Made by a program: the position numbers and the translations under genes | DNA from: an uncultured Bacilli bacterium | Lineage (GTDB): Bacteria > Bacillota_I > Bacilli_A > RF39 > UBA660 | Length of the DNA: 64,000 nucleotides | NCBI GenBank assembly: GCA_944329365.1 | Contig: CALVIC010000002.1 | Location: 5,062 to 69,061, forward strand | Reading direction: 5' to 3' | Part shown: piece by piece, positions 2,609 to 63,068 of the stretch | Layout: the number at the start of each line of letters is the position of its first letter | How positions within the stretch are numbered: position 1 is the first letter of the stretch | Notes under the pieces: model-generated | The model's database searches: none | Seen by the model: only the letters and a program-made list of their open reading frames with translations | What the model was told of the DNA's origin: nothing

Positions 2609-2634
2609 GTTACTCAAAAGTAACATCTTTTTTA
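2609..2634. terminator. bidirectional stem-loop between convergent genes
   Basis: gttact-caaa-agtaac followed by atctttttt. It lies between the stop at 2603 (+) and the stop at 2632 (-). Confidence 0.5.
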
Positions 2635-23054: not shown

Positions 23055-23069
23055 ATAGGGGAGGATTGT

Positions 23070-24002: not shown

Positions 24003-24017
24003 AACAAATGTGTAGAT

Positions 24018-24045
24018 TTGACAAAAATTCAAAAAAGATTATAAT
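24018..24045 (+). promoter_or_regulatory. consensus sigma-A promoter (TTGACA, 16-nt spacer, TATAAT)
   Basis: ttgaca at 24018-24023 and tataat at 24040-24045, upstream of paralogue 3. Confidence 0.55.
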
Positions 24046-24080
24046 ATAACCCATAATTTAAGTAAGAGGAGGAATATTAT

Positions 24081-40401: not shown

Positions 40402-40434
40402 AAACTGTTAGGATTTATCTCTTAACAGTTTTTA
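40402..40434. terminator. bidirectional stem-loop between spoIVB and the glycan locus end
   Basis: aaactgtta ... taacagttt (9 bp) with flanking T/A runs. Confidence 0.55.
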
Positions 40435-41863
40435 TATATTTACGCTTCTTATTTTTCTTTTCAATATTCTCTACACATTTATTTAAAATAAACCTATTAT
40501 AAATATACCACATTCCATAACCAGCTAAAATAAATATAGCAACCCTTGGTGTATATGTATATCTATTCATAATCTCGATAAATAAATAAACAATAAAATA
40601 TCCACATAAAAGTATTATATATAAATTAGTTCTTTTATCAAACTTAGATTTAATTAATCTAAAAAGTCCAACCATCGCAAGACCAAATGTCAATAAATAA
40701 ACCTGGTTATTATATAAATTCATAATCTCATTAACTTTTGTACCATAAATTTCATGTGAAAATATCTTTAAATTTTGACTATATAAATAATTATTAGACC
40801 AATATAAATCATTGCCAAGCCAAAACATTCTAGCTTTACTTAAAAGTAAATGAGCAAATTGTCCGGGATTTTCAATAGTCCTCTCCTTAATCACCTCAAG
40901 TTCCTTCTTAGGATGATCAAGATAAGTTAAATCATCTTTTAAAGAATATTGTCCATTACTTTCATAATTAGTACCTAAAACAAACTTCCATAAAGGATCT
41001 TTATTTCCTAAGCCACTTTTACTTATTCCCGTAAGCTCAAAAGTTAAAGAAACACCTTTGGTAATTATCAAATAGCTAACTAAAACAAATAAAATTTTCT
41101 TCACTATATCTTTAAGTTTTTCATCTTTATAACACAAAAATATAAAATAACAAATTATTGCTAAAATAAATATAATACCTTCAGGTCTCATGATATTTCC
41201 AATTCCAATAAATATTCCTATCAATGAATACCTTAAAATAAAATTCATTTTATCAAATCTTGAAGAAATTATCATATAAAAAGCTAAGAAAAATAAAAAA
41301 GTAGGAATATGCTGATTAGTTAAAACCGTTGTAAGCATAACCGGCATTAAATAAAAACAATAAAGTAAACTACAAAATCTTGCAGTCTTTTCATTAATTA
41401 ATTCTTTAATTGTTAAATACATGATAACTGTTGTTCCCGTTAAAGCTAAACAATTAATAAATTTAAGTAAAAAAACACTATCACAAAGTTTTAAAATAAC
41501 AGCTTGATAAAATATATGGCCAGTTTGATAACCCCATCTTATAATATAATCCCAATTTGTATAATCAAAATTACCTGACGCTAACATTTTAGCTGCATCA
41601 TACATTGTTTTAAAATCTGACTCAATCGGTGGATTAAAAATTAAAATAACTCCAAGTTTTGAGATCAAAGAAAAACCTAATAAAAAATATACAAATTTAG
41701 GAATATTTACCTTGAAAGATAAAACATAAATCAAAATTAAAGTTAAAATAATATAAATATAACTATTTACACTCAAATAAACAAGTGTCGCAATACTTAA
41801 TAAAAATAATAAAATAAATTTAGGATAACTTGTTATTTTTAATTTATCAAAAAAATTTGTCAT
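40415..41863 (-). CDS. polytopic membrane protein, GT-C-like (PMT/ArnT-type) glycosyltransferase candidate
   Basis: About 12 TM. First loop PPIESDFKTMYDAAKMLASG (acidic motif after the early TMs). The track start at 41893 (ATGA overlap) is also possible; ATG41863 has the GAGAGGAGTAGGAGA Shine-Dalgarno. Confidence 0.5.
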   Translation of the reverse strand: MTNFFDKLKITSYPKFILLFLLSIATLVYLSVNSYIYIILTLILIYVLSFKVNIPKFVYFLLGFSLISKLGVILIFNPPIESDFKTMYDAAKMLASGNFDYTNWDYIIRWGYQTGHIFYQAVILKLCDSVFLLKFINCLALTGTTVIMYLTIKELINEKTARFCSLLYCFYLMPVMLTTVLTNQHIPTFLFFLAFYMIISSRFDKMNFILRYSLIGIFIGIGNIMRPEGIIFILAIICYFIFLCYKDEKLKDIVKKILFVLVSYLIITKGVSLTFELTGISKSGLGNKDPLWKFVLGTNYESNGQYSLKDDLTYLDHPKKELEVIKERTIENPGQFAHLLLSKARMFWLGNDLYWSNNYLYSQNLKIFSHEIYGTKVNEIMNLYNNQVYLLTFGLAMVGLFRLIKSKFDKRTNLYIILLCGYFIVYLFIEIMNRYTYTPRVAIFILAGYGMWYIYNRFILNKCVENIEKKNKKRKYIKTVKR

Positions 41864-41889
41864 AATTCTCCTACTCCTCTCTAAATAAA

Positions 41890-43215
41890 TCATTCACTTT
41901 TAAGTGTAATCTTATCCATTCCATAATAACCAGCAACATTAAAATTAGGCCAGTCTTCAGCATTCTTATTCAAATCGACTCCTCCATAACATGGATTATG
42001 TGGATCTTTGGCATAATAAGGTTCAACTTCCGCATCAAAAATTCCCTTATCTTTTAATTCATCAAAATAATTGATTCGGTTTATCCATGTATTTCTAAGT
42101 TCTTTAATATCATTAAATCCAACTAAATAACTAGAAACATATATTATTGAAGCAATTACAATAACATCACCCATTATAAACTTAAAAATTCTTTCCAAAT
42201 CAACTAACTGATAAAGCAAAATCATCGCAGCTATTATTGCAAATGTAATTACACCAAACCAAGCTCTAGCCGGAAAAGTTGGTGATAAGACCATCGCATA
42301 TACAGTTAAAATTGAACCAGCTAAAAATACAATTGACATTAAATCATATTTTTTCTTTTTATAAATATAAATACTAATTAAAATCACTATTCCAATAAGT
42401 AATGGCAAACAATAATCAACAAAACTAATAGTATCATCAATTATTCTTTTTAAAAGTTTAATCATTAACGATGACTCATCACTCATCGAAGACTCTCTCA
42501 CAAAATTTCCTGGTGCCACAATCAAAATAATAAAACCTAAAATCGTTCCAATAAGGCCACTAATTTTATAACCTAAAATTTTAATATGTTTTTGATATTT
42601 ATCGGTAAGCATAATACCAACCAAAATAACTATTAAACCAAAAGCCGTATTTTCGTTCGTCCAGCCTGCAATAATTCCGAATAAGAACATTAAAATCATT
42701 TTTAAAGCTGAATTTTTCTTTGAGTGTTTTCGGAAAAACCATAAAAATAACAAAATAAAGAACATTGTCCATAAATAATTACAAGAACCAACTAACCATA
42801 AACAAGTTTGTCCAAAAACCGGTTGTAAGAACCACAAACAAAAATGAATTGCAAGTAAAAAAAGTGGTTTATCTTTTTTGTTATCGCCTTTTACATTTAA
42901 ATAAATCAAATATACAACCAAAGTATAAACAATTGAATTAAAAACATTAAAAACATCCTTAGGAAAAATCAAAAAAGTTTGAGCAATCGCATGAGCAATA
43001 ACCCTACCACCCCAATTAAAATAATGCCATAATTGATAATTAAAAACATCAATTAAATTAACAATTCTCTCATTGTTTAATTTAAAAGAATATGAATAAT
43101 CATCTGCAATCAATGGAGTAAACATATTCAAAATTAACATCATCAAAAAAATTCCTAATAAAATTAAAATAATTTGATTTTTCTTAGACATTATAAAACT
43201 TTTTATTTTCTTCAT
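41890..43215 (-). CDS. polytopic membrane protein, GT-C-like (DUF6056-type) glycosyltransferase candidate
   Basis: 441 aa, about 11 TM. PLIADDYSYSF lies directly after TM1, matching the acidic first-loop motif of GT-C enzymes that use polyprenyl-P-sugars. Confidence 0.55.
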   Translation of the reverse strand: MKKIKSFIMSKKNQIILILLGIFLMMLILNMFTPLIADDYSYSFKLNNERIVNLIDVFNYQLWHYFNWGGRVIAHAIAQTFLIFPKDVFNVFNSIVYTLVVYLIYLNVKGDNKKDKPLFLLAIHFCLWFLQPVFGQTCLWLVGSCNYLWTMFFILLFLWFFRKHSKKNSALKMILMFLFGIIAGWTNENTAFGLIVILVGIMLTDKYQKHIKILGYKISGLIGTILGFIILIVAPGNFVRESSMSDESSLMIKLLKRIIDDTISFVDYCLPLLIGIVILISIYIYKKKKYDLMSIVFLAGSILTVYAMVLSPTFPARAWFGVITFAIIAAMILLYQLVDLERIFKFIMGDVIVIASIIYVSSYLVGFNDIKELRNTWINRINYFDELKDKGIFDAEVEPYYAKDPHNPCYGGVDLNKNAEDWPNFNVAGYYGMDKITLKSE

Positions 43216-44352: not shown

Positions 44353-46923
44353 TCATAAGTTCTCTTTTAACATCTTATTCCAAATTTTAACAACTTCTTT
44401 TTTACTAAACTTCTCAGACGTTTTAACTGCTTCTTTTCCCATTTTTCTGCGAAGATCATCGTCCATTAATATCTTATCAACATCTTTTATAAACATCTTT
44501 GAATCTCTATTTTCTATAATAAAACCATTAATCCCATCTTTAACAATATCACCAGTCCCTGATGCAGTTTTATAAACTATACAAGGAACCCCATAACTCA
44601 TTGCTTCAAGCAAAACCATTGGAAGTCCTTCTGTAACTGAAGCCATCAAAAAGCACGAAGAATCAAGCATATGTTTTTTTATTTCATCTTGATTTAAATA
44701 ACCAAGCATATGTACTCTTTTCTCAAGCTTTAAATCAGCAATTTGCTTTTTTAAAGCTTCATACTCTGCCCCATCACCAATAATATAAAGTTGAGCCTTT
44801 TTATTTTTTATTTTAGAAAAATTATCGATAATTTCATTATTTCTTTTCCCATAATCTAATCTACTCACAGTTATTAAATTAGGTTTACTTAAAGAACTAT
44901 GTTCCAAAGAGAGTTCTGATAGCATATTGGGTAGTAAAACAACCTTAGTATGATTGTTAAACTTTAAAAATTTCTTGTAATCATCATAAAGTGTTGTTGT
45001 TAATGCACACAAATAATCAATTCCAAGATATTTTTCTTTAATCTTTCTAATATATTTTTTATTATTGTTGTGATAACAATGTTCTTGAGCAATATTTAAT
45101 GTTTCAACGTTTCCATACTTGCTAAGTAAAGTGCTTATTTCAACTCTAGTTGAAACAATCGCTCCTTTTTTAGTGTTTTTTATTTCTTTTATCATTAAAA
45201 TACGCTTTAAAATCAAAATTTTTAAAGCTTTAATGCCTTCTTTAAAAGCTTTAATAAATTTTTTATTATGCAAAAATTCCTTAAATTCTTTTCTATTTGG
45301 TTCACCACCATATAGGAATTTAACCTTAACATTCTTATTAAGCTTATTATCTTGACTGTTTTTTAATTTATAAAACGCCACAATTTCAACATTATAATCT
45401 TTAGAAAGCGCATTCGCACTATTTATAGTCGCACTCTCAATTCCGCCATATCCTAAATGAAGGGATAAAAATTTAACATCAGAAATTTTTTCTTTTTTTT
45501 CATTACTTATAGTATCCATCTTTAATAAAAGCATAGTCATAATTACCGCAAGGAATATAGAAAAATTAGTATAAATATAAGTGTAACCCGCATAAATACT
45601 AATGCAGAAGAATATTCCAAGACCCATAAATAACATTGCAAATTCTAAATCTAATTTCTTAAATTTTGTAAATATAAATTTAATACATTTTCCAAAAATC
45701 CATATTGGAATAATTAAGAATAATATAAATCCAAAAATTCCAAAATTAAATATAGCCATAAAGAAATCTCGTTCTAATGCAAATGAAGCATCTTGATTTA
45801 AAAAGCCTAAACCCAATAATTTATATTGAACATCAGCAATTTTATATTTATAGGCAGAATAAACAAGTTGCTTTGCTCTTGTATCTGATGGATGCACTTT
45901 ATGAGCATAAAATTGATTTTCTAAATATTTACTAGCTTCTTTCCCCCAATTACGATATTTTTTAACATATGACAAATTTTTATCAGGATTATCTTTTATA
46001 ATCTTATCATAATCAATATCTTTCTTTCCACTTTCTTTCGATAGGTCATACATCTCCGCTTCAATAGCCGCATTCTTATTATTAATATCTGTATTATAAG
46101 CAACTGGAGTATACTGGTAAGTAACTAACATAACAATAACACCTAAACAAGCAATAGCTATATTGAACCTACTTACCGCACCAATATTTTTATGGAAAAA
46201 TTTAAAGAATAAAAGCAATATAACATAACAAACAAGTACAATTAAAACAATAAAATATGGAACCTTAGTACCAAGAAGTGATACAAATAAAATGGCTAAA
46301 GCTAAATACAAAAATCTAATTATTCTAAATCTTGATGGTTTTAAAATAACATAAAGTATCACTGGAAAACAAGTAGAAAAAGCATGGCCTAATATTTGAC
46401 CAGAATCAAACCAGCCTTTAAATCCTTTTTTATATTTATCTGCATACTCATAAGTCCTTCCAGACGTGCCTGTAATAATAGATAAAAAATATAAAACTAA
46501 ATATATACCAAACGTAATTACTAAAGTATATTTAAGTTCTCTAAGCATTCTTTTCTTATCACTTGACCAATAATAAATAGTAAATAAATCAAAGCACATA
46601 GCAATCATGTAAGCAATATTTATAATAAATCTAAACTCATGTAAAATTATGTCTTTTCCAAGCAATAATTGATAAAGTAAATACAAATGACCCACTGTAA
46701 ATAAAGCAAACAGTACCACATAAATAATCCACTTTCGCTTAAATGGGGAATATTTAAATAACAAATAAGCTGCTAAGCCAAACACAAAAAGAGGTTTAAC
46801 ATAAGTTGAAATATTGGGGATAATATCTAAAATAGCAAGTCTTGACAAAACATCAAGTACTGGCTGAACTAAAATAAATATAAGCAAAATTCTTAAAATT
46901 ATTCGTTGTTTTTTTTCTGTCAT
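44353..46923 (-). CDS. fusion protein: O-antigen polymerase/ligase-like (Wzy-type) membrane domain + C-terminal GT4 glycosyltransferase
   Basis: 856 aa. Residues 1 to about 470 form 10+ TM segments with a large loop. Residues from about 480 onward are GT-B/GT4, with GGIESATIN at the domain start and the EX7E region TEGLPMVLLEAMSYGVPCIV. Confidence 0.7.
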   Translation of the reverse strand: MTEKKQRIILRILLIFILVQPVLDVLSRLAILDIIPNISTYVKPLFVFGLAAYLLFKYSPFKRKWIIYVVLFALFTVGHLYLLYQLLLGKDIILHEFRFIINIAYMIAMCFDLFTIYYWSSDKKRMLRELKYTLVITFGIYLVLYFLSIITGTSGRTYEYADKYKKGFKGWFDSGQILGHAFSTCFPVILYVILKPSRFRIIRFLYLALAILFVSLLGTKVPYFIVLIVLVCYVILLLFFKFFHKNIGAVSRFNIAIACLGVIVMLVTYQYTPVAYNTDINNKNAAIEAEMYDLSKESGKKDIDYDKIIKDNPDKNLSYVKKYRNWGKEASKYLENQFYAHKVHPSDTRAKQLVYSAYKYKIADVQYKLLGLGFLNQDASFALERDFFMAIFNFGIFGFILFLIIPIWIFGKCIKFIFTKFKKLDLEFAMLFMGLGIFFCISIYAGYTYIYTNFSIFLAVIMTMLLLKMDTISNEKKEKISDVKFLSLHLGYGGIESATINSANALSKDYNVEIVAFYKLKNSQDNKLNKNVKVKFLYGGEPNRKEFKEFLHNKKFIKAFKEGIKALKILILKRILMIKEIKNTKKGAIVSTRVEISTLLSKYGNVETLNIAQEHCYHNNNKKYIRKIKEKYLGIDYLCALTTTLYDDYKKFLKFNNHTKVVLLPNMLSELSLEHSSLSKPNLITVSRLDYGKRNNEIIDNFSKIKNKKAQLYIIGDGAEYEALKKQIADLKLEKRVHMLGYLNQDEIKKHMLDSSCFLMASVTEGLPMVLLEAMSYGVPCIVYKTASGTGDIVKDGINGFIIENRDSKMFIKDVDKILMDDDLRRKMGKEAVKTSEKFSKKEVVKIWNKMLKENL

Positions 46924-50819: not shown

Positions 50820-51996
50820 GTTTCTCCTCCTTAAAGTCTTCCAGTAATCTAATTAAATCAAAATAATAATTTTTTGAATTAAATTTCTTAGCATGTTCAT
50901 AAGCTTTTTTACCCATTTCATCAAGTTTATCTTTCTCATTATATAATGTTAAAATTCCTTTTTTTAAATTATTAACAACATTTCTATCTTTTTCAACTAC
51001 TAAAGAAGAATCTTTATTTAAATACTCTGGTGCTCCTCCAGTTCTCGTCGCTAACATAACTTTTTTTGAAATCATTGTTTCAATGCATGCCAAAGGTGCG
51101 GCATCTTCCCACAATGAAGGAAGACACACAATGTTTGTACAAGCATAATATTTATAAACGTCCCAGTTATTAACATATCCTGTAAAAATAATTTGACTTT
51201 CATAACCTTTCACTTCTTCTTTTAATTTTTCAGTGTATTCATCACCTTTGCCATCTAAAAAATTATTAGAACCAAGTATTAAAAGTTTAATATCCTTCTT
51301 TTTAGTTGCTTTAACCGCCTTTATAAGTTCCAAAACTCCCTTAACTTTAGTAAGTCTGCCACAATAAAGTACTAAAAAATCATCTTTTTTTATTCCACAT
51401 TTCTCACGAATCTTTAACTTTTCTGAATCGCTTACATATTTATCAAACTTACTTAAATCAATTCCATTATTTAAATATTTAGTTTCAATAACCTTTGTAC
51501 TTTTTGCAAAATCATCCGTCACAAACTTTGAAACGCCTATTAATTTCGAAAAAGTTTTATCGATAAACACATTACTTTTGCCTTGATGATGAAGATGTAA
51601 AATCATTTTATCACGGGAAAAATACTTCAAAAACTCATTAAAACTTTCGTAATGACCGCCTTCAGCAATTATATAATCAAAATTCATGTTTTTTATTTTC
51701 CTAAGAACTATATGGTTATAAGTATTTAAATTAGTTTTAAATAATCTATTTGAAATATTATAAATACACCCTAAAAAAATATAAAACAAATTCTTCTTAA
51801 TATATATAAACTTAGTTTTAGAATATCTTTTACTTTCCTCAAAAGCTTTTTTACTATAAATAGAAACAACTGTTAAATCAATTCTTCCTTCTTTTTCTTG
51901 CTCTCTAACGACATTCGTAACTAAATTTTCAATCGCTCCCCCATTAACACTAGGAACTGGAAGTAAATTTGGTGTAATTAAACAAATTTTAAGCAT
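50812..51996 (-). CDS. GT4 (group 1) glycosyltransferase
   Basis: GGAIENLV N-terminus and WEDAAPLACIETMISKKVMLATRTGG (EX7E-like). 8-nt overlaps with both neighbours. Confidence 0.85.
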   Translation of the reverse strand: MLKICLITPNLLPVPSVNGGAIENLVTNVVREQEKEGRIDLTVVSIYSKKAFEESKRYSKTKFIYIKKNLFYIFLGCIYNISNRLFKTNLNTYNHIVLRKIKNMNFDYIIAEGGHYESFNEFLKYFSRDKMILHLHHQGKSNVFIDKTFSKLIGVSKFVTDDFAKSTKVIETKYLNNGIDLSKFDKYVSDSEKLKIREKCGIKKDDFLVLYCGRLTKVKGVLELIKAVKATKKKDIKLLILGSNNFLDGKGDEYTEKLKEEVKGYESQIIFTGYVNNWDVYKYYACTNIVCLPSLWEDAAPLACIETMISKKVMLATRTGGAPEYLNKDSSLVVEKDRNVVNNLKKGILTLYNEKDKLDEMGKKAYEHAKKFNSKNYYFDLIRLLEDFKEEKHG

Positions 51997-53554
51997 TAAC
52001 TTTCCTCCTTAAAAACTTATTTTTAATAATTTCAAATAAAGACTTAAACTCTTTCGTTTTAAACGTTAAAATTATAAATAATCCCAAAGCAATAATTGAA
52101 AGTACAATTGCTTTTATAAACCAAGTTAAATAATTTGTTGTCACAAATAAACTTGACAAATACGTTACAAACGCCCCTACACCAAGGGTTATTAAAAGAT
52201 AAGCAAAATACTTAATGAAATATTTCTTTGTATTCTTATTTTTGAATAAATATTTATATAAAAGTACTGGATCAGTCCAAAAGAAAGTTAAAGCTTTAGC
52301 TAAAGTCGCTCCTAAAAATATTCCAGCAACCCCAAACCATTTTGCAAATAAAATAGATAAAACAACATTTAAAATAACTTCATATAACGGAACAAGTTTA
52401 GCCTTTTCAAATAAACCACTTGTCGTCCTAAAAGAATAACAAGCAAAATTAACCCCATTAACATAAACATTTAATAAAATTGCAAATACTATAAAAAGTG
52501 AAAATAAATATTCTTTGCCTATCCATATATTAATAAAATCGTTAATAAGAGCCATTAAAAGTACACATGCAAGTCCAAATATAAAGAAGCACATAAACAA
52601 AATCTTATAAAATGTTGTTTCTTTTTTATCTTCAGTTTCCACTGCATTCAAATTTCCTATACTAGGTTCTAAAGCATTTGTAACCTGATTTAAAAACATT
52701 GTTATATAACCTGTAATTAAATAATAATTTGAATAAATACCAACCAAAGCCACCCCTAAAACAGAAGACATAACCAAATTAGCTGTTCCGTTTAAAATTG
52801 AAGGATTTAACTTATAAAATATAAGTGCTTTAACTTTACTACTAACTTCTTTCCTTTCTTCTTTTGAAAGTGGAATCACATTTTTTTCTTTGATAAACGG
52901 AAACATTTTATTAGCTTTTCTACTAATTAAAATATTATTAAGTAAAGTACAAATAATTTGAATTACTAAATAAATTATATAGTTTTTTGTTACAATTAAG
53001 AAAATAGTCTGTAAAATAACCTGAATCCACTTAAAAGCTTGACTATAAACAGAAACAATATAATTTTTTTGGTACGCATTAATAACTGCTGTCTTATGTG
53101 AATAAAAATACCCAATACAAGTATTTACTAAAAACAAAACATAAATAAAATTTAAATCTTCAGGTATTTTTGGTGGATTTTTAATAATTATTCCCATAAA
53201 CGGAATAACTAAAAGACCAAGAATAAGCATCGTCAACCCAACAATCGTATAAACCCTTCGGTAATAATTTAAAACTGTTTTTATCTTTTCCTTATCATTT
53301 TCCGCAACCGGTTTATACATCATATATAAAAGAGCAGTTCCAAAACCAAGTTCCACAAACGAAAGTGTTGATAAAATATTTGAAAAAAGTCCGTTAATAC
53401 TTAAATAATCATTGGCGAGTATTTTAATAAAAATAGTTCTACTTGCAAAACTTAAAACTAAAGAGAATAGTTGCATAAGCATCCCAACTAAACTATTTCT
53501 CACAAAATTATTAGTTCTACTATCAGTTTTCACCATTTCCTCTTGCACTAACAA
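51989..53554 (-). CDS. Wzx-type oligosaccharide flippase (MOP superfamily)
   Basis: 521 aa, about 14 TM. N-terminal FVRNSLVGMLMQLFSLVLSFASRTIFIKIL is typical of polysaccharide biosynthesis flippases. Confidence 0.8.
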   Translation of the reverse strand: MLVQEEMVKTDSRTNNFVRNSLVGMLMQLFSLVLSFASRTIFIKILANDYLSINGLFSNILSTLSFVELGFGTALLYMMYKPVAENDKEKIKTVLNYYRRVYTIVGLTMLILGLLVIPFMGIIIKNPPKIPEDLNFIYVLFLVNTCIGYFYSHKTAVINAYQKNYIVSVYSQAFKWIQVILQTIFLIVTKNYIIYLVIQIICTLLNNILISRKANKMFPFIKEKNVIPLSKEERKEVSSKVKALIFYKLNPSILNGTANLVMSSVLGVALVGIYSNYYLITGYITMFLNQVTNALEPSIGNLNAVETEDKKETTFYKILFMCFFIFGLACVLLMALINDFINIWIGKEYLFSLFIVFAILLNVYVNGVNFACYSFRTTSGLFEKAKLVPLYEVILNVVLSILFAKWFGVAGIFLGATLAKALTFFWTDPVLLYKYLFKNKNTKKYFIKYFAYLLITLGVGAFVTYLSSLFVTTNYLTWFIKAIVLSIIALGLFIILTFKTKEFKSLFEIIKNKFLRRKVNA

Positions 53555-54567: not shown

Positions 54568-54597
54568 GAAAAAAAGTTCAAGATAAAATCTCGAACT
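54568..54597 (-). terminator. rho-independent terminator closing the 4-gene UbiA operon
   Basis: Minus strand: agttcgaga-tttta-tcttgaact (9 bp including one G-U) followed by T7. The stem overlaps the TAG stop of the 1070-aa gene. Confidence 0.65.
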
Positions 54598-57500
54598 ATT
54601 TCAAATTCCCTGTTTCATCAAGCAAGAAAAGTAAAAGCTCTGAAGCCGTCCATGTATGAAGTGGAGAAATTTCGTTATTTACTAAATAACTATCAATTAC
54701 CTTCATCTTCTTATAATTAGCTTCACTACCCTTTTTCTCATAAGAAATTGGATATAAGTTTTTATTTAAATAAATCTTTCCCCTACCTGTTTTATGATAT
54801 TGAGCAATCGAAAGATAAGGATAATCTTCAGACAAATTATTTTCAAAATACGCTGTCGAACTTTTTCCATACCACCAAGTTAATCCATCATAACTATCTT
54901 CTGTATCATAATTAGCAAAAGAATTCTTAAAACCTAGAGACTTCATTCCAAAGTTATACCACTTATTTTGATAAGTATCATGATAACCACCGTCAGTAAA
55001 TCCGTGTAAATAAAAACCATTTTCATTATTTGAAGCATTTTTTAAAGCTTCCATTCGAATATCTTCAATCAAATCATTATGGTCGTTTTTAGAAATAGAA
55101 ACAATATATAAAAGTTCTCCTAAATTATCTGGCTCCGCATTATCTGCATTCTGCTTATCGTAAACATCATCAATTGAAGAAATCCAGTCATCTATTAATT
55201 CTACATTATCTGTTTGCTTCAAAACCATCGCCATCATTGCTGCATCACGATACCACGGCTTATCATAAACAAATATATTGGGATATGGCATTGAATTTTT
55301 TATATTAAATAATATCTCTCCATATAAAACCTTTTTCATATTTTTATATTTTTGATTATTAAAGCTTTCTAGATTAATATATTTATCTGTCCCTCTAATA
55401 ATTTCTTTATTATCATCAGTGCAAACAAATACGCCATCTTCATTTTCATATATTTTAACTTTTTTACCATCTTTTGTAATAAGCACAACCATATATTCAT
55501 TTGGAATAATTAAATATTTTGAAACATTCCATTTATATAAAACTTTACCCGTTGACGTATCAGTAATCATACCATCTTTATATAGTAGTTTTAATCTGTT
55601 TCCAAAGCCAAACAAATAATAATCATCTGGACCAACATCCACTAATTCTGTACTATAATTATTTATAAAATTATCATATTCATCGCAATAATCCAAATAA
55701 CTTTCATATTCCGAAGCAAAACTTCTTTTAATTTCATCATTATCTTTTTTTACAACTTCTTTTACTTCTCTTTGATTTATATTATCTAATTGAATTCCAA
55801 ATAACTTTTCATGAACTGGTGCTGTTTTTATTCCAATAAAAATCAGGCTTAATGTATAAAAGCAAACAACAATCGAAAACACATTTTGCACCTTCTTGTC
55901 TTTTTTTATTATATTTTTATAAATTAAATAAATCAAAATATAACAAGCAAAAGTAATCAATAAAATTAAAAATAACAAATCAAAGCCACTCATTACACTT
56001 CTAAAATAATTTGAATGCAAGATATTCCCTGCTACCGAAAGAATAAATCTAAAATCAATAAAATTAACAGTAAATTCAATTAAAAGTATCATTAACAAAA
56101 CATAATTTAATATTTTATTCTTTCTTTCATTTTTAAATGGTTTATAATTAATAAACAAAAGTAAAAAAGGTAAATATAAGAAATGACAAGAATACAAAAA
56201 CGGTTGCGAACCATATACTAAATGCAGACATGTATTAAAACTTAAAGCTAAAATCACACCGATATTTAACCATAAGTTTTTTCTAAAATTTCTTATAACA
56301 AAATATAAAACTAATCCATAAAATACAATAAAAGCAAATACCGATAGAACTCTTGTTTCCCCAAAAGTAATCATATAACTATTACTTTCTGAAGTTTCAA
56401 CTGACAATTTTGAAGCAACTAAAGAATTAATATAAACATCTTTAAATACATCTTTTATTTTATCCAAAGTAACATTATAATCAGTATATTTTTCTTCCTC
56501 TTTATAATTATCTTCTGACTCATAAATTAAAGTAGTATTAGACCAAACTAAGTTTTGAACATAAGAAAGTCCAATAGTTAAAACAACAACCAATATATTT
56601 ACAAATAATATCTTTTTTAAACTTATTTTCTTTGAAAACAATAAAATTAATGAAACAATTAAAAAGATAAAATAATTAGTAACCGTAAAAGCAACCGAAG
56701 ATATACCAAGTAAAACTAAAAAGAAAATATTCTTATTAGAAACATCTTTAGATTTAAATATTTTTATAGTTTGATACCAAAGTAAAATCAAAAAGAATGC
56801 TGCAACATTATAAACTTCTATTCCTGCCGTAAAAACAAAATAAGTAAAAGAAAATCCAAATAAAGAACATATTAAAATTTTAAATAATTTATTATCAGAA
56901 AATATTGAACCAATTAAATACAAAACAACTACAGATAAACTACTGATTAATGATGAAAAAATTATTAGTGATAACATACTATCATTAGTAATTCCATTAA
57001 AAAATAAAATAATAGGTTCAATAAAAATGACATACAAAGGATGAACTCTTATTCTATAATGATCTCCTAATATATTAGAAAAATCGCCAATAACTCTTGC
57101 TGTATCCGAATCAAAAAGTAAATCATAATTATTCTTAAAATCATAATTATATGAAAGAAAAACACCAATAATCAAATAAAAAGTCAAAAAGAATATAAAT
57201 AATCCAAACGCAACTTTACTATTTCTTTTTTTTATAATAATTTTATCATTCCAAATTGTAACCTTATCTTCACAAGCATAAAAAGATTCATTAGCCATAT
57301 TTACTAAGGGTAAATCTTCTTCAAGACAAGTGTAAATTTTGTCAATCTTTTTATTTTTAAGTCTTTTTAACTTTTCTTTTCCATCACAATATTTGCCATC
57401 AATATTGCCAGTTTTTAAATTATATTTATTCCCAATAACCATTACCTTATATTTTAACTCAAAAAACTCTTTGAACAAAAACTCTGGTACATCACTAGTA

Positions 57501-57808
57501 ACACATATTTTTTTGTTTTCACTATTAATAGTCGCTAAAAAATTATCATCTATTTTTTTTGAATACTTTTTCCAAAAATCTTCTACCAAAAAATTCTTGT
57601 CATCAAAAAAAAACATAAAAGAATAAAATTTTTCAATGTATCTTTTCTTATCAATAATTCTAAATAAACTTAAAAATTTGTAAAACAAAATTATTGGTAA
57701 ATAAAAAATTATACTAATTTTTTTACTTAAAGCAAAAAACAAAAAATCAAAATTAACATTCCCTTTATAAATAGTTTTATTAAAATTATAAACCCAAAGT
57801 TTCTGCAT
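54596..57808 (-). CDS. 1070-aa fusion: cytoplasmic HAD-IB-like domain (degenerate motifs) + about 14-TM GT-C-like membrane domain + about 400-aa extracytoplasmic C-terminal domain
   Basis: Start chosen at MQKLWVYNFNKT (GGAGGAG Shine-Dalgarno; 23-nt overlap with the UbiA gene). HAD-IB-like layout: YNFNKTI (motif I position), KICVTSD (II), CDGKEKLKRL (III), YTCLEEDLPLVNMA (IV). First loop after TM1 is LLFDSDTARVIGD. The C-terminal domain contains PWYRDAAMMAMVL. Confidence 0.6.
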   Translation of the reverse strand: MQKLWVYNFNKTIYKGNVNFDFLFFALSKKISIIFYLPIILFYKFLSLFRIIDKKRYIEKFYSFMFFFDDKNFLVEDFWKKYSKKIDDNFLATINSENKKICVTSDVPEFLFKEFFELKYKVMVIGNKYNLKTGNIDGKYCDGKEKLKRLKNKKIDKIYTCLEEDLPLVNMANESFYACEDKVTIWNDKIIIKKRNSKVAFGLFIFFLTFYLIIGVFLSYNYDFKNNYDLLFDSDTARVIGDFSNILGDHYRIRVHPLYVIFIEPIILFFNGITNDSMLSLIIFSSLISSLSVVVLYLIGSIFSDNKLFKILICSLFGFSFTYFVFTAGIEVYNVAAFFLILLWYQTIKIFKSKDVSNKNIFFLVLLGISSVAFTVTNYFIFLIVSLILLFSKKISLKKILFVNILVVVLTIGLSYVQNLVWSNTTLIYESEDNYKEEEKYTDYNVTLDKIKDVFKDVYINSLVASKLSVETSESNSYMITFGETRVLSVFAFIVFYGLVLYFVIRNFRKNLWLNIGVILALSFNTCLHLVYGSQPFLYSCHFLYLPFLLLFINYKPFKNERKNKILNYVLLMILLIEFTVNFIDFRFILSVAGNILHSNYFRSVMSGFDLLFLILLITFACYILIYLIYKNIIKKDKKVQNVFSIVVCFYTLSLIFIGIKTAPVHEKLFGIQLDNINQREVKEVVKKDNDEIKRSFASEYESYLDYCDEYDNFINNYSTELVDVGPDDYYLFGFGNRLKLLYKDGMITDTSTGKVLYKWNVSKYLIIPNEYMVVLITKDGKKVKIYENEDGVFVCTDDNKEIIRGTDKYINLESFNNQKYKNMKKVLYGEILFNIKNSMPYPNIFVYDKPWYRDAAMMAMVLKQTDNVELIDDWISSIDDVYDKQNADNAEPDNLGELLYIVSISKNDHNDLIEDIRMEALKNASNNENGFYLHGFTDGGYHDTYQNKWYNFGMKSLGFKNSFANYDTEDSYDGLTWWYGKSSTAYFENNLSEDYPYLSIAQYHKTGRGKIYLNKNLYPISYEKKGSEANYKKMKVIDSYLVNNEISPLHTWTASELLLFLLDETGNLK

Positions 57809-58676
57809 ACAATACTCCTCCGACATACACAATATAAATAATTGTTGCGATAATTAAAGTTTTATCATGTGTAAGTACGTCAACTGGATCACCAAGTGAA
57901 TCACTTTCAACAATTAAACTATATCTCATTACTATAAATACAACTATAATTATGCTATAAATAAGCAATTTACTAACATTATCAGATACTCCTAAAATAC
58001 ACCACAAAGAATAAAATACCAAAGTTAAAGCCAAAAAAACATACATAAATTTATCTAAAAATTCCTTACTATAGTATTTTAAAACTGGCCTACTATCTTT
58101 ACTTTTTATATATTCTCCCCTTCTCTTTCCAACAACCAAATAGAAAGACAAAGCTAATATAGTTAAATAAAGCCAATCAGAAACAGGTGTCTGTATCGCA
58201 TATCCACCAAAATAAACTCTAATTAAAAATCCGAAAGCAAGTATAAAAATATCCACTATTGGAATATGCTTTGCCCATTTACTATAAATTACGTTTAAAA
58301 TCAAATATAATAATAAGCATAATGTTGTTACAACAAACGCCTCAAAACTAAACAATAAATATTTATATAATAGAGTTTGGGTACCCAAACTCACTATCAA
58401 CATGATAGTGAATATTAAATATGCCTTTTTTATACTTATCTCTCCACTAGCAATAGGTCTATTCTTTTTAACCGGATGTTTTCTATCCTTTTCAACATCT
58501 TGTATATCATTAAAAACATACACAGCAGAAGCAATAAAAGAAAATGCTAAAAACTCTGTTAAAGTAATTAAAAATAATTTACCATTTAACAAGTTACCGC
58601 TAAAAACAAGTGGTAAAAAAATCAAAAAATTTTTAATATAATGTTTTATTCTAAGTAATCTTATATATTTCTTCAT
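57786..58676 (-). CDS. UbiA-superfamily polyprenyl-phosphate 5-phosphoribosyltransferase (Rv3806c/DPPR synthase-like)
   Basis: 296 aa, 8-9 TM. RIKHYIKNFLIFLPLVFSG, ASAVYVFNDIQDVEKDRKHPVKKNRPIASGE and LIRVYFGGYAIQTPVSDWLY...VVGKRRGEY align with M. tuberculosis Rv3806c ([30 protein letters not shown] ... GKRYAE), from memory. Confidence 0.75.
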   Translation of the reverse strand: MKKYIRLLRIKHYIKNFLIFLPLVFSGNLLNGKLFLITLTEFLAFSFIASAVYVFNDIQDVEKDRKHPVKKNRPIASGEISIKKAYLIFTIMLIVSLGTQTLLYKYLLFSFEAFVVTTLCLLLYLILNVIYSKWAKHIPIVDIFILAFGFLIRVYFGGYAIQTPVSDWLYLTILALSFYLVVGKRRGEYIKSKDSRPVLKYYSKEFLDKFMYVFLALTLVFYSLWCILGVSDNVSKLLIYSIIIVVFIVMRYSLIVESDSLGDPVDVLTHDKTLIIATIIYIVYVGGVLYAETLGL

Positions 58677-59812
58677 GAAACCACCTCATTAATTTTGTCA
58701 GTATAATAATTAATATACATTTTAATTTTTTTCAGCATTTTCATTTTTCCCAAAATTTTAAAAATAAATGCTCTTATTCTTTCTATTACAATACAAATGA
58801 TAAATATTAAAAACATCATTAAAAGCATATATAAAACATATTCTAAAGTATAATTAAAATAATTTGTATTTAAACGCAGAAATTCATAAACAAATTGTTT
58901 AACAAGTTTGTTTTCAGTTATTAAATAAACTCCTAAACAATATGGACTTATCATTAAAACAATCTTTGACAACAAATTATTTTTAATCTTTAAATTCCAA
59001 AAAATATAAAAATATGCTACAGTCTGTATTATTATAATAGGATTACTATAATTAAGACGATAAGAAACAAAATTATCACCGATTATATGTAAAAATGACC
59101 CATCAAATCGTTGCATTATAATTCCTAACTTATATAACGCTAAATTCAAAAAAGCACATAAAATAAATATAAAAATCGAAATAACAGTTCTCTTTTTTGA
59201 CGACATCTTTTTAATAAAACAATGGTCAAAAATACTATATTTTCCTAGATAAGCACCTATAAAATATAAAGTAATCATTTGAATTAATGAATGTCCATCA
59301 TTTAATATAATTGAATCGCCACTAAATAATGGTAAAACTGAAAAACAAATAAACAATAAGATAAGTAATACAAAATGCTGTTTTTTACCAATATTATTTA
59401 TTAAGGCGTTTAGAAATGGACATAAAGCATATAAAAGTACATATTTCATAATAAACCAATAATTGTCATTCATATCAATAGGCATTATATTCAAAGCTAA
59501 AATATCAGCTGCATATATGTAATGAAAACAAAATGCAAAAATTAAAACAAAAAATATTCGATAAAACCAAGAAACTCCAAGCAAATTCAGAATCTTATTA
59601 AATTTAAACTTCTTTTTATACTGAAAAAATCCCATTAAAATAACAAATGAATTAACATGTACAATTATTATGGCTAAAATAATGTCAAATAATCTTCCAT
59701 AATTATCAACAACATTATCAAATCCTCCATGAATTATAATATGCCACAAAACAATCATTAACATAGAAATAATTCTCATTAATTCAAAATTAACCATTAT
59801 TTTATTTTTCAT
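58673..59812 (-). CDS. acyltransferase family 3 (O-acyltransferase)
   Basis: 379 aa, 10-11 TM. N-terminal FELMRIISMLMIVLWHIIIHGG. 4-nt overlap with the UbiA gene. Confidence 0.7.
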   Translation of the reverse strand: MKNKIMVNFELMRIISMLMIVLWHIIIHGGFDNVVDNYGRLFDIILAIIIVHVNSFVILMGFFQYKKKFKFNKILNLLGVSWFYRIFFVLIFAFCFHYIYAADILALNIMPIDMNDNYWFIMKYVLLYALCPFLNALINNIGKKQHFVLLILLFICFSVLPLFSGDSIILNDGHSLIQMITLYFIGAYLGKYSIFDHCFIKKMSSKKRTVISIFIFILCAFLNLALYKLGIIMQRFDGSFLHIIGDNFVSYRLNYSNPIIIIQTVAYFYIFWNLKIKNNLLSKIVLMISPYCLGVYLITENKLVKQFVYEFLRLNTNYFNYTLEYVLYMLLMMFLIFIICIVIERIRAFIFKILGKMKMLKKIKMYINYYTDKINEVVS

Positions 59813-59824
59813 AAACTACATCAA

Positions 59825-60760
59825 CTACTTCTTGTCTTTTTCTGTTTCTGAAATTATATATATTGGGCGTCTTTTAACTTCTAAATACGCTTTTGACAAA
59901 TATTGTCCCATTATTCCAACGCAAAGAAGCTGAACACCACCAATAAAAAACATTATACATACCATACTTGGCCATCCACTAGTTGGATCACCAAACATTA
60001 TCGTTCTTACAATAATAAAGATTATAATAAGAAATGCTACAAAACAAAATAAAATTCCCATAACAGATGCGATAGACAAAGGTACTGTCGAAAAAGCTAC
60101 AATACTATCTAAAGAATATAAAAACAATTTCCAAAAAGACCATTTTGTTTCACCTGCAACTCTAGGAGTATTTTCATATTCAAGCCATTTTGTTCTATAA
60201 CCTACCCAAGAAAAAATTCCTTTTGAAAATCTATTATATTCTTTCAAAGATAAAACTGAATTAACCATTTGCCTTGTCATAAGTCTAAAATCCCTTGCGC
60301 CATCGACAATCTCAGTTTTAGATATTTTGTTAATAATTTTATAATAAAGCCTTGCAAAAAAGCTTCTTATAATAGGTTCTCCTTTTCTCGAAACTCTTCT
60401 TGTTGCCACACTATCATATTCTCCACTCTCTAAAATCTCATACATTTCATGAAGAAGAGCTGGCGGATCTTGTAAATCAGCATCCATAATTGCAACATAA
60501 TCACCAGTTGCCGCCTCAAGTCCTGCATACATTGCCGCTTCTTTTCCAAAGTTTCGTGAAAAAGAAATATATCTTACATCGTCTTTGCTAGAAAGCCTTC
60601 TGAGTATTTCTAATGTTTTATCACTTGAGCCATCGTTTACAAAAAGCATTTCAAAAGAAACACCTTTAAAATCACTTTTTATTTTTTGAATTTCATCATA
60701 AAACAAATTAACTGTTTCTTCCTCATTATAACATGGAACAACTAAAGATATTTTTTTCAT
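59825..60760 (-). CDS. GtrB/ArnC/CsbB-type GT2 polyprenyl-phosphate glycosyltransferase
   Basis: ISLVVPCYNEEETV, FVNDGSSDKT, AIMDADLQDPP and two C-terminal TM segments. This is the classic architecture of bactoprenol-P sugar synthases. Confidence 0.88.
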   Translation of the reverse strand: MKKISLVVPCYNEEETVNLFYDEIQKIKSDFKGVSFEMLFVNDGSSDKTLEILRRLSSKDDVRYISFSRNFGKEAAMYAGLEAATGDYVAIMDADLQDPPALLHEMYEILESGEYDSVATRRVSRKGEPIIRSFFARLYYKIINKISKTEIVDGARDFRLMTRQMVNSVLSLKEYNRFSKGIFSWVGYRTKWLEYENTPRVAGETKWSFWKLFLYSLDSIVAFSTVPLSIASVMGILFCFVAFLIIIFIIVRTIMFGDPTSGWPSMVCIMFFIGGVQLLCVGIMGQYLSKAYLEVKRRPIYIISETEKDKK

Positions 60761-61073
60761 TTATATCACCACCATCTTGTCCATGTAAATTATAGCATAT
60801 TTATAATAATAACAAAAGGCTTAATAATAAATATATATAGGAGAAATCTATATAGCCTGCATAAAGATACCAATAAAAAGCATTTCTAATATAAAATAAA
60901 GTACACATAAAACAAAATATTTAAAAATTTAATAAAATCTGAACAATTTTAAATACTAATTAAAATAATAAATGTCAAATCACAGTCAAACAAAAGCAAC
61001 AAAAAAAGAAAATTATTGTCAAAATATATGAAATAAATTGTATTTCCTGTATAATTATAATAGGGTGAGAAAT

Positions 61074-63068
61074 ATGGATAACAAAAAATATAAATCAAGA
61101 CAAGATAAAAGAAACTATGAAGAAAATTTAAAAGAAGAAAAAACAAAAACGGAAAAAGAAATGGCTAAAAACCGTGAAGAAATGAAAAAAATATTATTTA
61201 ATGATAACAGGTCAAATGAAAAAGAAAAAATAAAAAAACCAATATTTACTAACGTTTGGTTATCACTTACTTTAGTAGTCGCACTTGCATTCGCATTATA
61301 CCTAGCCTATCATTCACTAAATAGTGTTAACCAAATATATGAAATAACCAATGGTATATTAATCTTTTTAACAGTAATATTCTTCGTTATTTCATATAAC
61401 CAAACCTTAAAGAAAAACAAAACGTTTGGTGCTGTAATAACAGGAGCATTTTTTATGGGATTTATGGCATTTAACAGTCTTTATCTCTTAAATGTAATTG
61501 AGTTGCCAGTTCAAAGTAACATTCCAAACTTCACTGGTAAAGAATACACTGAAGCAATCTCATGGAGTGAAGACAATAATATAAAATATAATCAAACATT
61601 TGATTACAGTGATACCGTTGAAAAATATAGTGTTATAAGTCAAAGTGAAAAACCAGAAACACTAACTAAAAATATTAAAAAAGTAGATTTTAGTGTTTCT
61701 AATGGCCCTGATTATAATAAAAACGTTATAATTTCCGATATGACAGGATGGAATATAAAAGATGTTTTAAAAGTAATTGACGAAAATTTCTTAAACAACG
61801 TTAAAATAAATTATGAAGAAAATCCAGATGTTGGCAAAAACGTTGTTACATCTCAAAGTAAATCAGGAAACATTAAAAGAAACGATGAAATTGAATTTAC
61901 CGTTTCTCTAGGTGATAAAAGTAAATTAAAATCTATAAATCTTAAAGATTTAAAAAACGAAAAATTATTAAACGCTGAAGTTTATTTAGGCCAAAATGGA
62001 ATAACATATGAAATAAAATATGAGTTTTCAAATAAAATTAAAAAAGGAAATATTATTAGTACAAGTCCAAAACAAGGAACAAAATTAAATCCAGATGATC
62101 ACATCATTATAACAGTTTCCAAAGGAAAAGAAATAAAAGTTCCAAATCTTAGAAACAAAACAATGTTATACATTACAAAATGGATGATTGAAAACGATTT
62201 ACAAATAAACTACTCAGACAGATATGATAACGAAATAAAATCAGGAAGAGTTATCGAAGCAAATTATAAAGAAGGAGACATAATCGAAGAAGGAACAACC
62301 GTTGACATAACCTTTTCTAAAGGAAAATTAAAAATGCCAAAATTAACCACTATAGATGAATTTAAATCATGGGCTGATACAAATGGTGTTAAATACGAAA
62401 TAGTTGAAGAATTCAATAATGATATAGCTCAAGGAAATATAATCAAAACATCAGTTAACACAGGAAAAGCTATTAACTTAAACGAAACAATTACTGTTAC
62501 CGTTTCCAAAGGTCAAGCTATAAATGTTCCAAACTTTAATGGAAAAACAAGAAATGAAGCTCAAAAAGAATGTGACAATTTAGGATTAATATGTTCATTT
62601 GTTGAAGAAACATCAACTAAAAAAGAAGGAACAATTATTAATCAAAACATTTCATCTGGAACTGAGGTCGCTAAAGGCGAAAGTATAACACTTACCGTTG
62701 CTACAAGTAAAAAAGTAACTACAACATCAAACAAGAAAACATCTTCAAGTAGTTCAAACTCATATAGACCATCAAGTACAAATAGACCTTCTAATACACA
62801 ACAAAATCCAGGCGGTTCTAACCAACAATCTGGGAATACCGACACATGTGATAGAAGCAAAACCATAACTATTGTTAAACAATCATCACTAAATGGTGAT
62901 TCTGCAGCAGCTACATTAAAAAACTATCAAAATGCGTATCCAGGAATTAAATTTACATATACTGAAAAAGCATCGCAAAAAGGAAGTCCTGGCATGATAC
63001 ATCAAGATATGCCAAAATCTTTTACAGCAAATTATTGTGATACATATACACTAATAATTATTAAATAA
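61074..63068 (+). CDS. stand-alone PASTA-repeat membrane protein (charged cytoplasmic N-terminus, 3 TM, about 6 PASTA domains, S/T/N/Q-rich linker, about 90-aa C-terminal domain)
   Basis: Repeated modules of the form (V/M)P(N/K)(F/L)xGK...a...g(i/l).y......s......G.II.(T/Q)sp..G..v.....I.(I/L)tVSKG, for example VPNFNGKTRNEAQKECDNLGL...GESITLTVA. No kinase or transpeptidase domain. ATG61074 has a GGGTGAG Shine-Dalgarno. Confidence 0.8.
   Translation: MDNKKYKSRQDKRNYEENLKEEKTKTEKEMAKNREEMKKILFNDNRSNEKEKIKKPIFTNVWLSLTLVVALAFALYLAYHSLNSVNQIYEITNGILIFLTVIFFVISYNQTLKKNKTFGAVITGAFFMGFMAFNSLYLLNVIELPVQSNIPNFTGKEYTEAISWSEDNNIKYNQTFDYSDTVEKYSVISQSEKPETLTKNIKKVDFSVSNGPDYNKNVIISDMTGWNIKDVLKVIDENFLNNVKINYEENPDVGKNVVTSQSKSGNIKRNDEIEFTVSLGDKSKLKSINLKDLKNEKLLNAEVYLGQNGITYEIKYEFSNKIKKGNIISTSPKQGTKLNPDDHIIITVSKGKEIKVPNLRNKTMLYITKWMIENDLQINYSDRYDNEIKSGRVIEANYKEGDIIEEGTTVDITFSKGKLKMPKLTTIDEFKSWADTNGVKYEIVEEFNNDIAQGNIIKTSVNTGKAINLNETITVTVSKGQAINVPNFNGKTRNEAQKECDNLGLICSFVEETSTKKEGTIINQNISSGTEVAKGESITLTVATSKKVTTTSNKKTSSSSSNSYRPSSTNRPSNTQQNPGGSNQQSGNTDTCDRSKTITIVKQSSLNGDSAAATLKNYQNAYPGIKFTYTEKASQKGSPGMIHQDMPKSFTANYCDTYTLIIIK

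Follow-up and report, generated by a model that had tools for sequence, protein, structure and literature searches.

A predicted lipid-linked ribofuranose operon with a degenerate HAD module in a glycan locus of an uncultured gut Bacilli bacterium

We analysed a 64,000-nucleotide stretch of DNA from an uncultured Bacilli bacterium (contig CALVIC010000002.1 of assembly GCA_944329365.1, positions 5,062 to 69,061; hereafter the window), which contains within a glycan locus a four-gene operon whose products point to a lipid-linked ribofuranose pathway acting outside the membrane. The window is 99% identical to a contig from a metagenome-assembled genome labelled as an uncultured gut 'Bacilli bacterium', and Clostridium was rejected as its source on this evidence. 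All four genes lie on the minus strand (Table 1) and encode, in order, a GtrB-type glycosyltransferase of family GT2, a membrane O-acyltransferase of the AT3 family, a UbiA-like protein resembling mycobacterial Rv3806c, and a 1070-aa fusion protein (the large protein) that joins a HAD-fold module, a polytopic membrane module and an extracytoplasmic domain. Our listing of open reading frames (ORFs) agrees with the four genes placed here by the initial annotation, which had been made from the DNA letters. The genes are closely packed, with a 12-nt gap between GT2 and AT3 and overlaps of 4 nt (AT3/UbiA) and 23 nt (UbiA/large gene); both overlaps and the 1070-aa length had been reported before and are borne out by the coordinates, by a GGAGGA Shine-Dalgarno sequence 7 nt upstream of the ATG of the large gene, and by an N-terminus that agrees with those of homologues. 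All four ORFs are intact and tightly coupled, with good ribosome-binding sites. A 95-aa ORF antisense to the large gene (57339-57626, plus strand) has a low-complexity sequence with much Phe, Leu and Ser; most likely it is an artefact of the AT-rich DNA.

A hairpin and promoter-like elements at its presumed boundaries make it plausible that the operon forms a separate, autonomous transcription unit, as the initial annotation held. The stem-loop and terminator that it described at the 3' end were found again, with a stem at 54597-54575 followed by T7 at 54574-54568 (dG -12.9 kcal/mol, z = -3.1 versus shuffles). It had also placed a fresh promoter after this terminator: TGTATAAT is present at 54546-54539, with the ATG of the next gene 20 nt downstream, but consensus matches of this kind are no commoner than in shuffled sequence (55 found versus 60.6 expected, no enrichment). 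At the other end, the 277-bp divergent intergenic region common to GT2 and a PASTA gene holds TGCTATAAT. Since promoter-like matches do not exceed the shuffled level, the promoters of the operon are plausible, not demonstrated. An Rfam scan of the whole window returned no RNA element, so neither a leader nor a riboswitch precedes the operon.

Table 1 Features of the operon and of the adjoining glycan locus (positions in the window)
Feature	Position	Strand	Remarks
GtrB-type GT2	59825-60760	minus	ORF, 311 aa; first gene
AT3-family membrane O-acyltransferase	58673-59812	minus	ORF, 379 aa
UbiA-fold polyprenyl-phosphate 5-phosphoribosyltransferase (predicted), Rv3806c type	57786-58676	minus	ORF, 296 aa
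1070-aa fusion gene	54596-57808 (whole ORF 54596-57832)	minus	start ATG at 57808
HAD-fold (PRP-like) module	57254-57808	minus	residues 1-185, cytoplasmic, degenerate catalytic motifs
GT-C-fold polytopic membrane module	55811-57247	minus	residues 188-666, ~13 transmembrane helices
C-terminal extracytoplasmic domain	54596-55741	minus	residues 690-1070, beta-sandwich + helical subdomain
Intrinsic-terminator-like hairpin + U7	54568-54597	minus	10-bp stem, 3-nt loop, overlaps stop codon of large gene
Extended -10 promoter-like element TGCTATAAT	60789-60797	minus	consensus match, 28 nt upstream of GT2 start
MOP-superfamily transporter	51989-53554	minus	weak MatE match, 20 bits, under cut-off; next transcription unit
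PMT_2-family polytopic protein	40415-41893	minus	33.6 bits versus cut-off 26.1
DUF6056 polytopic protein	41890-43215	minus	442 bits

The UbiA-like protein is predicted to be a polyprenyl-phosphate 5-phosphoribosyltransferase (PPPRS), the type of enzyme represented by Rv3806c. Against NCBIfam it scored 189, 181 and 125 bits with the DPPR-synthase models and at most 50 bits with models of quinone, heme, chlorophyll and other UbiA-family prenyltransferases, while NF006088 ('UbiA family prenyltransferase', 482 positions) gave 149 bits through its C-terminal half alone (positions 193-378). The best match in a PDB sequence search was the Rv3806c structure 8j8j (E 4e-32; next UbiA structure 2e-7), and identity to Rv3806c is 31%. 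Some relatives in gut Bacilli are annotated 'decaprenyl-phosphate phosphoribosyltransferase' by NCBI and JGI. The likeness to Rv3806c motifs that had been noticed earlier extends to single residues: when functionally defined positions were mapped from Rv3806c structures, 13 of 16 were identical (R22, K28, Y70, N73, D74, D77, D81, K87, R90, Y138, K143, R192 and E195 in Rv3806c numbering; R9, K15, Y53, N56, D57, D60, D64, K70, R73, Y131 and K136 are among them in window numbering). Kept in this way are the NDxxDxxxD Mg2+/ribose motif, the K/R cluster that contacts pyrophosphate, and the 5-phosphate contacts K28 and Y70. The three differing positions are Q135 (Asn), Y157 (Phe, a natural mycobacterial variant; PMC10994848) and K208 (Pro).

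The protein also falls in Pfam UbiA, and its scores lie under the curated equivalog cut-offs of the DPPR-synthase models (189.4 versus 234 bits for NF008977, 181 versus 207 for NF008978), which marks it as a divergent member rather than an equivalog of the actinobacterial enzyme. Both observations would suit an ordinary prenyltransferase of the quinone, heme O or ether-lipid type whose link to glycan genes is coincidental. However, the DPPR-synthase models score ~140 bits above any other UbiA class, and the protein keeps the phosphoribose-specific K28 and Y70, with Asn at the Q135 position; the phosphoribose-binding sites of Rv3806c are not conserved in ordinary UbiA enzymes (PMC10994848). Linkage to genes for phosphoribosyl pyrophosphate (PRPP) synthetase, HAD-PRP and GT-C across phyla likewise argues against coincidence. 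An identity as quinone or heme prenyltransferase was rejected on the score gap and the residues, and we regard an ordinary prenyltransferase of any kind as very improbable.

This linkage was assessed across 45 loci that contain relatives of the large protein; they come from Bacilli of gut and rumen, from many Saccharibacteria and from a few Clostridia. In 36 of them the gene for the GT-C protein has a UbiA homologue no more than ~5 kb away, and all but one of the other nine are truncated contigs. The HAD accompanies the pair in several arrangements: fused to the N-terminus of the GT-C protein, free-standing (~190 aa) beside UbiA, or fused to a PMT_2-like polytopic protein. GtrB-type GT2 genes join the UbiA/HAD/GT-C trio only in Bacilli loci, which indicates that the conserved partner of the GT-C protein is the UbiA/HAD pair and not GtrB. 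In 15 Saccharibacteria loci UbiA directly adjoins a PRPP synthetase gene, an adjacency that speaks for PRPP as the donor without recourse to homology. Several related metagenome-assembled genomes carry the module in synteny (55-99% identity), and in two of the Bacilli loci (L047 and L048) the PASTA gene and the divergent GT2-(AT3)-UbiA-GT-C order are kept while the downstream glycan genes differ, a combination of constant head and variable remainder that is typical of a modification module on a variable polysaccharide locus.

Two variants of the gene string deserve description in their own right. The 15 Saccharibacteria loci (in the range L018-L043; e.g. L040 12643-14991, minus strand) carry PRPP synthetase, UbiA-PPPRS and a free-standing HAD as a string near the GT-C gene, with genes for a TagG/TagH-like ABC transporter, GalE and UDP-galactopyranose mutase nearby; from this string, TM7 epibionts would be expected to bear an envelope glycan with pentofuranose decoration. 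Another fusion occurs in some Bacilli loci, where the HAD is joined to a weakly PMT_2-like polytopic protein of ~715-765 aa (L008 5209-15364; L012 10550-12718; L026 4671-6812), which implies that the HAD-GT-C fusion arose with more than one GT-C partner. L008 also holds two tandem paralogues of the large GT-C protein.

The large protein gave no match in Pfam (E <= 0.01) or PDB-sequence searches, and its modules were resolved only through structure prediction. An AlphaFold model built from 21 homologues (pLDDT 86.4) comprises three modules, and the positive-inside rule together with the model helices yields a topology in which ~13 transmembrane (TM) helices separate a HAD module inside from a C-terminal domain outside. 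The top Foldseek matches of the membrane module were all GT-C proteins (ALG12, ALG9, Pmt4, STT3, DPY19, AftB, AglB, ArnT, PglB and AftA), in agreement with the polytopic GT-C-like and extracellular fusion described in the initial annotation. Directly after TM1, the first outside loop contains the motif FDSDTARVxxD...HxRxxVHP, in which D235, R238, D242, H250, R252 and H256 are invariant, the first three of them across 21 sequences. GT-C catalytic Asp residues sit in the loop right after TM1 (PMC11127046); the position of D235, R238 and D242 fits such catalysis, and we predict a catalytic role for this loop. Judged by sequence, the large GT-C protein represents a separate, uncharacterised family (~1,190 clusters at 50% identity, E <= 1e-10), distinct from GT136 by Pfam signature. 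Relatives match DUF6080 weakly (21-23 bits, below cut-off), and no functional study of DUF6080, DUF6044 or DUF6056 emerged from a literature search.

The C-terminal domain appears to have a novel fold: modelled alone it reached pLDDT 94.5 and pTM 0.94, with no PDB fold match below E 0.05 in Foldseek (best 0.055) and no Pfam match. Weak resemblances to alpha/alpha-barrels (squalene-hopene cyclase, GH8, C3d; E >= 0.055) were not relied on. The domain also occurs in stand-alone proteins of ~400 aa with a signal peptide, lipobox or membrane anchor (P0190, P0203, P0226, P0229 and P0241), which agrees with its outside location, and joined to other N-terminal regions. The pattern suggests an autonomous extracellular function, enzymatic or glycan-binding.

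We think it rather likely that the operon encodes a Gram-positive version of the three-component pathway for extracytoplasmic pentofuranosylation, adding ribofuranose to a surface polymer. Residue mapping, fold matches and gene-neighbourhood conservation uphold the central proposal of the initial annotation, that a lipid-linked ribofuranose donor is used outside the membrane. In the pathway as we envisage it, the PPPRS would move 5-phosphoribose from PRPP to polyprenyl phosphate (presumably C55-P) at the cytoplasmic face, and the 5-phosphate would then be removed, in most relatives by the associated HAD PRP and in the window lineage by some other phosphatase. The resulting polyprenyl-P-ribofuranose would be flipped by some transporter and used by the GT-C module, through its conserved Asp-rich first outside loop, to add ribofuranose to an outside acceptor, most likely the wall or capsular polysaccharide of the adjacent Wzx/Wzy-type locus. 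Contact with the acceptor glycan is probably the task of the novel C-terminal domain; the GtrB-type GT2 would make a second donor (polyprenyl-P-hexose or polyprenyl-P-N-acetylhexosamine, HexNAc), whose users are probably other polytopic proteins of the locus, and AT3 would add O-acyl groups. Pfam scans of the window, covering the main ORFs of at least 120 aa except 10541-12628 and 25051-25428, found no FAD_binding_4/DprE1-like protein, SDR/epimerase, PAP2, second HAD or GtrA/SMR gene, consistent with the earlier statement that the 64 kb hold neither a DprE1-like oxidase nor a DprE2-like SDR. With no epimerase detected in the window, ribofuranose is the sugar we predict, not arabino- or xylofuranose.

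The type of pathway was presented in the initial annotation as uncharacterised, which overstated the case. Kelly et al. (PNAS 2024, PMC11127046) demonstrated biochemically that a HAD(PRP)-UbiA fusion of Citrobacter youngae (ORF15) makes polyprenyl-P-ribofuranose from PRPP, and that ORF12, a GT-C enzyme and founder of GT136, adds alpha-ribofuranose to O antigen in the periplasm; ORF14, a MATE protein, is the predicted flippase. Auxiliary epimerases turn the donor into xylofuranose or arabinofuranose, surveyed systems without an epimerase matched ribofuranose-containing glycans, and candidate systems with unknown glycans were listed, including a Bacillus strain and a phage, with Gram-positive candidates flagged (PMC11127046). 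The pathway type was thus already known from Citrobacter, while no Bacillota example of it has been experimentally tested.

The window shares with the C. youngae O1/O2 system a UbiA-fold PPPRS using PRPP (as predicted here), a HAD PRP module, a GT-C protein and their linkage in a polysaccharide locus. Both GT-C proteins carry an extra extracytoplasmic C-terminal domain, which is a carbohydrate-binding module in ORF12 and the novel beta-plus-helical fold in the window. In contrast to Citrobacter, the window HAD is fused to the GT-C module and not to the PPPRS, and lacks catalytic Asp residues; the GT-C module is without a Pfam EpsG match (E <= 0.01), and so is set apart from GT136, indirectly, by Pfam signature; the operon has no MATE/SMR flippase and no epimerase, but adds a GtrB-type GT2 and AT3; and the host is a monoderm spore former, an attribute noted earlier and supported by SpoIVB and SpoIIM genes in the window. 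What is new here relative to Citrobacter is the separate GT-C family, the HAD-GT-C fusion and the putative pseudo-phosphatase.

Two better-known schemes offer partial parallels. The mycobacterial decaprenyl-P-arabinose pathway begins with the same type of committed enzyme and likewise supplies a lipid-linked pentofuranose to GT-C enzymes outside the membrane, but the window lacks DprE1 and DprE2, and hence the conversion to arabinose; its phosphatase module is of the HAD type rather than the PAP2 type (Rv3807c), its GT-C module is unrelated in sequence to Emb/Aft, and its lipid is probably C55 rather than C50. The GtrA/GtrB/GtrV and CsbB-YfhO/PgfS-PgfM systems resemble the window in making a polyprenyl-P-sugar inside for a polytopic transferase outside, and the window GT2 is a GtrB homologue; they differ in that the conserved partner of the large GT-C protein is UbiA/HAD, no GtrA flippase is present, and the PgfS/ArnC cut-offs are not reached.

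A further cassette of this kind lies on a human-fecal scaffold deposited as 'Bacteriophage sp.' (L046, MT837543.1, 898-5419), with genes for UbiA-PPPRS, HAD, an SMR/EamA transporter, an NAD-dependent epimerase and DUF6044; it may be a phage seroconversion module or a misclassified scaffold. As in the window, the string leads from a UbiA PPPRS (34% identical to that of the window) through a HAD-PRP to a polytopic membrane protein. The L046 HAD, however, is intact and free-standing and is accompanied by a transporter and an epimerase, whereas the window has neither and its polytopic protein belongs to another family. The use of a DUF6044 partner in L046 indicates that PPPRS/PRP pairs combine with several polytopic families.

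Several observations weigh against the ribofuranose pathway proposed here. Beside the sub-cut-off scores of the PPPRS, the GT-C assignment rests on fold, with modest Foldseek E-values (2.8e-4 for ALG12 to 1.2e-2, AftA 0.26) and TM-scores normalised to target of 0.3-0.5, and no link from this GT-C family to a characterised one was found by Pfam, PDB-sequence or profile-profile comparison. Profile-profile comparisons with DUF6044 of L046, a PMT_2-like neighbour in L010 and the window PMT_2 were not significant (E 0.29, 0.25 and 0.026), and blastp of the GT-C module with the window PMT_2 and DUF6056 proteins gave no match at E <= 1e-3. The operon contains no MATE, SMR or GtrA-type flippase; ORFs of 106-137 aa that recur in Saccharibacteria loci, sought as flippases, gave no Pfam match and have no counterpart in the window. 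Finally, the HAD module lacks the residues on which catalysis depends. The HAD-like partner named in the initial annotation stands as a fold (weak matches to HAD-IB models of NCBIfam; Foldseek matches to 3fvv, TM-score normalised to target 0.61-0.64, and to phosphoserine phosphatases; homologues matching PF12710 at 52-111 bits), but a phosphatase role cannot be assumed for it. Motif I, canonically YDFDxTIY, reads YNFNKTIY (N8-F-N10-K-T), with both Asp residues replaced by Asn, and motif IV has changed from SDSxxD to TCLEED, with Cys for the first Asp. The loss of these catalytic aspartates had been overlooked, and leaves 5-phosphate removal with no assigned enzyme in the 64 kb.

Swapping the nucleophilic Asp inactivates HAD phosphatases, and the window HAD phosphatase is probably inactive. 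The DFDxT of motif I is kept in 30 of 31 other HAD sequences from related loci; the exception (L001, YNLNKT) is almost identical to the window protein. Erosion of the motif can be followed through the fused clade, from DFDGT in P0003-P0005 by way of NFDGT in P0006 and P0007 to NFNKT in the window and P0002 (YNFNKT), and in P0008 the motif is unrecognisable. The HAD module is nonetheless the best conserved of the three between the window and P0002 (76.5% identity versus 66.7% and 70.8%), and the most diverged when the window is compared with HAD-intact relatives (44% versus 60-65% in the other modules). These opposing patterns suggest that the fused HAD module has lost phosphatase catalysis and retained some non-catalytic role.

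One such role would follow if the donor stayed polyprenyl-P-ribose-5-phosphate, were flipped as such, and were used by the GT-C module to transfer ribofuranose-5-phosphate, an anionic group, to a wall polymer, with the pseudo-HAD serving as a substrate-binding or hand-off module. In a variant of this idea, a dead HAD would capture the lipid donor at the cytoplasmic face and couple it to translocation by the GT-C module itself, which would account for the absence of a flippase gene. The erosion just described, in which the nucleophile is already gone in P0006 and P0007, accords with transfer of the phosphorylated sugar, as does the constraint on a degenerate module; no other phosphatase gene was found in the window or in L002, L047 and L048; and the Citrobacter ORF15 D18A variant accumulates the 5-phosphorylated lipid in vitro (PMC11127046). 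The same variant, however, still yielded a little dephosphorylated product in vitro and gave ribofuranose side chains in vivo (PMC11127046), so loss of the nucleophile need not abolish ribofuranose addition. No precedent was found for flipping or GT-C use of a 5-phosphorylated pentofuranosyl lipid, an unlinked phosphatase may lie elsewhere in the genome, and the GT-C active-site loop is the same as in HAD-intact relatives, suggesting the same donor. Transfer of the phosphorylated sugar therefore seems unlikely to us.

The stepwise erosion of motif I (DFD to NFD to NFN to unrecognisable) might also mark a decaying or silent pathway, in which a non-working module persists as intact-looking ORFs. 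Yet the ORFs are coupled and well furnished with ribosome-binding sites, conservation is complete in the catalytic residues of the PPPRS and in the GT-C loop, synteny extends to several related genomes, and the HAD module is itself under constraint. Decay is, in our estimation, quite unlikely.

The remaining two genes bear on which donor the GT-C module uses. The GT2 protein (Pfam GT2 1.5e-32; two C-terminal TM helices) matches the GtrB structure 5ekp (Synechocystis sll0501) over residues 3-305 with an E-value of 2.3e-79, versus ~1e-37 for ArnC, and scores 320 bits with PgfS (cut-off 500) and 152 bits with ArnC on NCBIfam, both under the equivalog cut-offs. These matches identify it as a GtrB-type polyprenyl-phosphate hexose or HexNAc synthase by homology, as the initial annotation had proposed for the second lipid-sugar synthase of the operon. 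AT3 matches PF01757 over residues 8-343 (58.2 bits versus cut-off 31) and has no SGNH domain; it is present in L001, L002 and L047 and absent in L048, and is thus optional to the module.

GtrB-type GT2 and GT-C proteins are commonly paired in Firmicutes (csbB-yfhO, gtlA-gtlB and pgfS-pgfM). By this precedent, the large GT-C module could use the polyprenyl-P-hexose or -HexNAc made by the GT2 protein, leaving the UbiA product to serve otherwise. The GT2 gene heads the operon, with synteny kept in L047 and L048, and in many Bacilli loci the GT-C gene is bordered by GtrB-like GT2 genes. Saccharibacteria, on the other hand, keep GT-C, UbiA and HAD (and in part PRPP synthetase) without a GtrB-type GT2 (GT2 matches 22-40 bits), and fusion of a HAD phosphatase module to the GT-C family ties the latter to the phosphoribosyl pathway. 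The PMT_2 and DUF6056 proteins of the window are moreover available for the GtrB product, and are probably its candidate users. We accordingly hold a GT2-supplied hexose or HexNAc donor for the large GT-C module to be improbable, and retain the lipid-linked ribofuranose as its predicted donor.

The glycan locus as a whole spans 40.4-60.8 kb and includes genes for Alg14/Alg13-like proteins, the MOP transporter, GT2 and GT4 glycosyltransferases, a Wzy-like/GT4 fusion, a second AT3, DUF6056 and PMT_2. The MOP transporter, whose syntenic counterpart in L048 matches Polysacc_synt, probably acts as Wzx for the backbone glycan; the window offers no other flippase candidate. The Wzy-like/GT4 fusion (856 aa, 44353-46923, minus strand) joins an O-antigen-ligase/Wzy-like membrane domain to a C-terminal GT4 and is kept at the same relative position in related loci (cluster 16; L048 from 22372). 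Divergent from the operon lies a gene for a PASTA membrane protein of 676 aa (61038-63068, plus strand), which carries six PASTA repeats but neither a kinase nor a transpeptidase domain; the adjacency is kept in at least L047 (4087-6141) and L048 (5945-7999), and the protein family occurs in seven related Bacilli loci (cluster 18).

Outside the glycan locus, other genes of potential relevance to envelope chemistry encode an arylsulfotransferase (ASST) homologue (2632-4341, minus strand) and a sulfatase-family protein of 516 aa that may be LtaS-like (34575-36125, minus strand). Three tandem paralogues of ~300 aa (22140-24980, plus strand), 35-40% mutually identical, lie downstream of two polysaccharide deacetylase genes; they have no Pfam match, an N-terminal hydrophobic segment and HExxH-like motifs (HELLH, HELFH and HDLLH), and may be membrane-anchored metalloprotease-like proteins.

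If the proposed pathway is correct, the pentofuranosylation paradigm of 2024 would reach beyond Gram-negative O antigens to Saccharibacteria and the monoderm Bacilli of the gut, and a function would be assigned to a large, uncharacterised family of membrane proteins and to its novel extracellular domain. The stepwise loss of HAD residues with retention of the fold is a putative case of pseudoenzyme evolution in a glycan pathway, and prompts the question what removes the 5-phosphate and how the donor is flipped; transfer of ribofuranose-5-phosphate, if it occurs, would provide a route not described before to an anionic decoration resembling teichoic acid. For the uncultured gut spore formers themselves, the pathway would place ribofuranose side chains on surface glycans, and such predicted epitopes would be relevant to immune recognition and phage adsorption.

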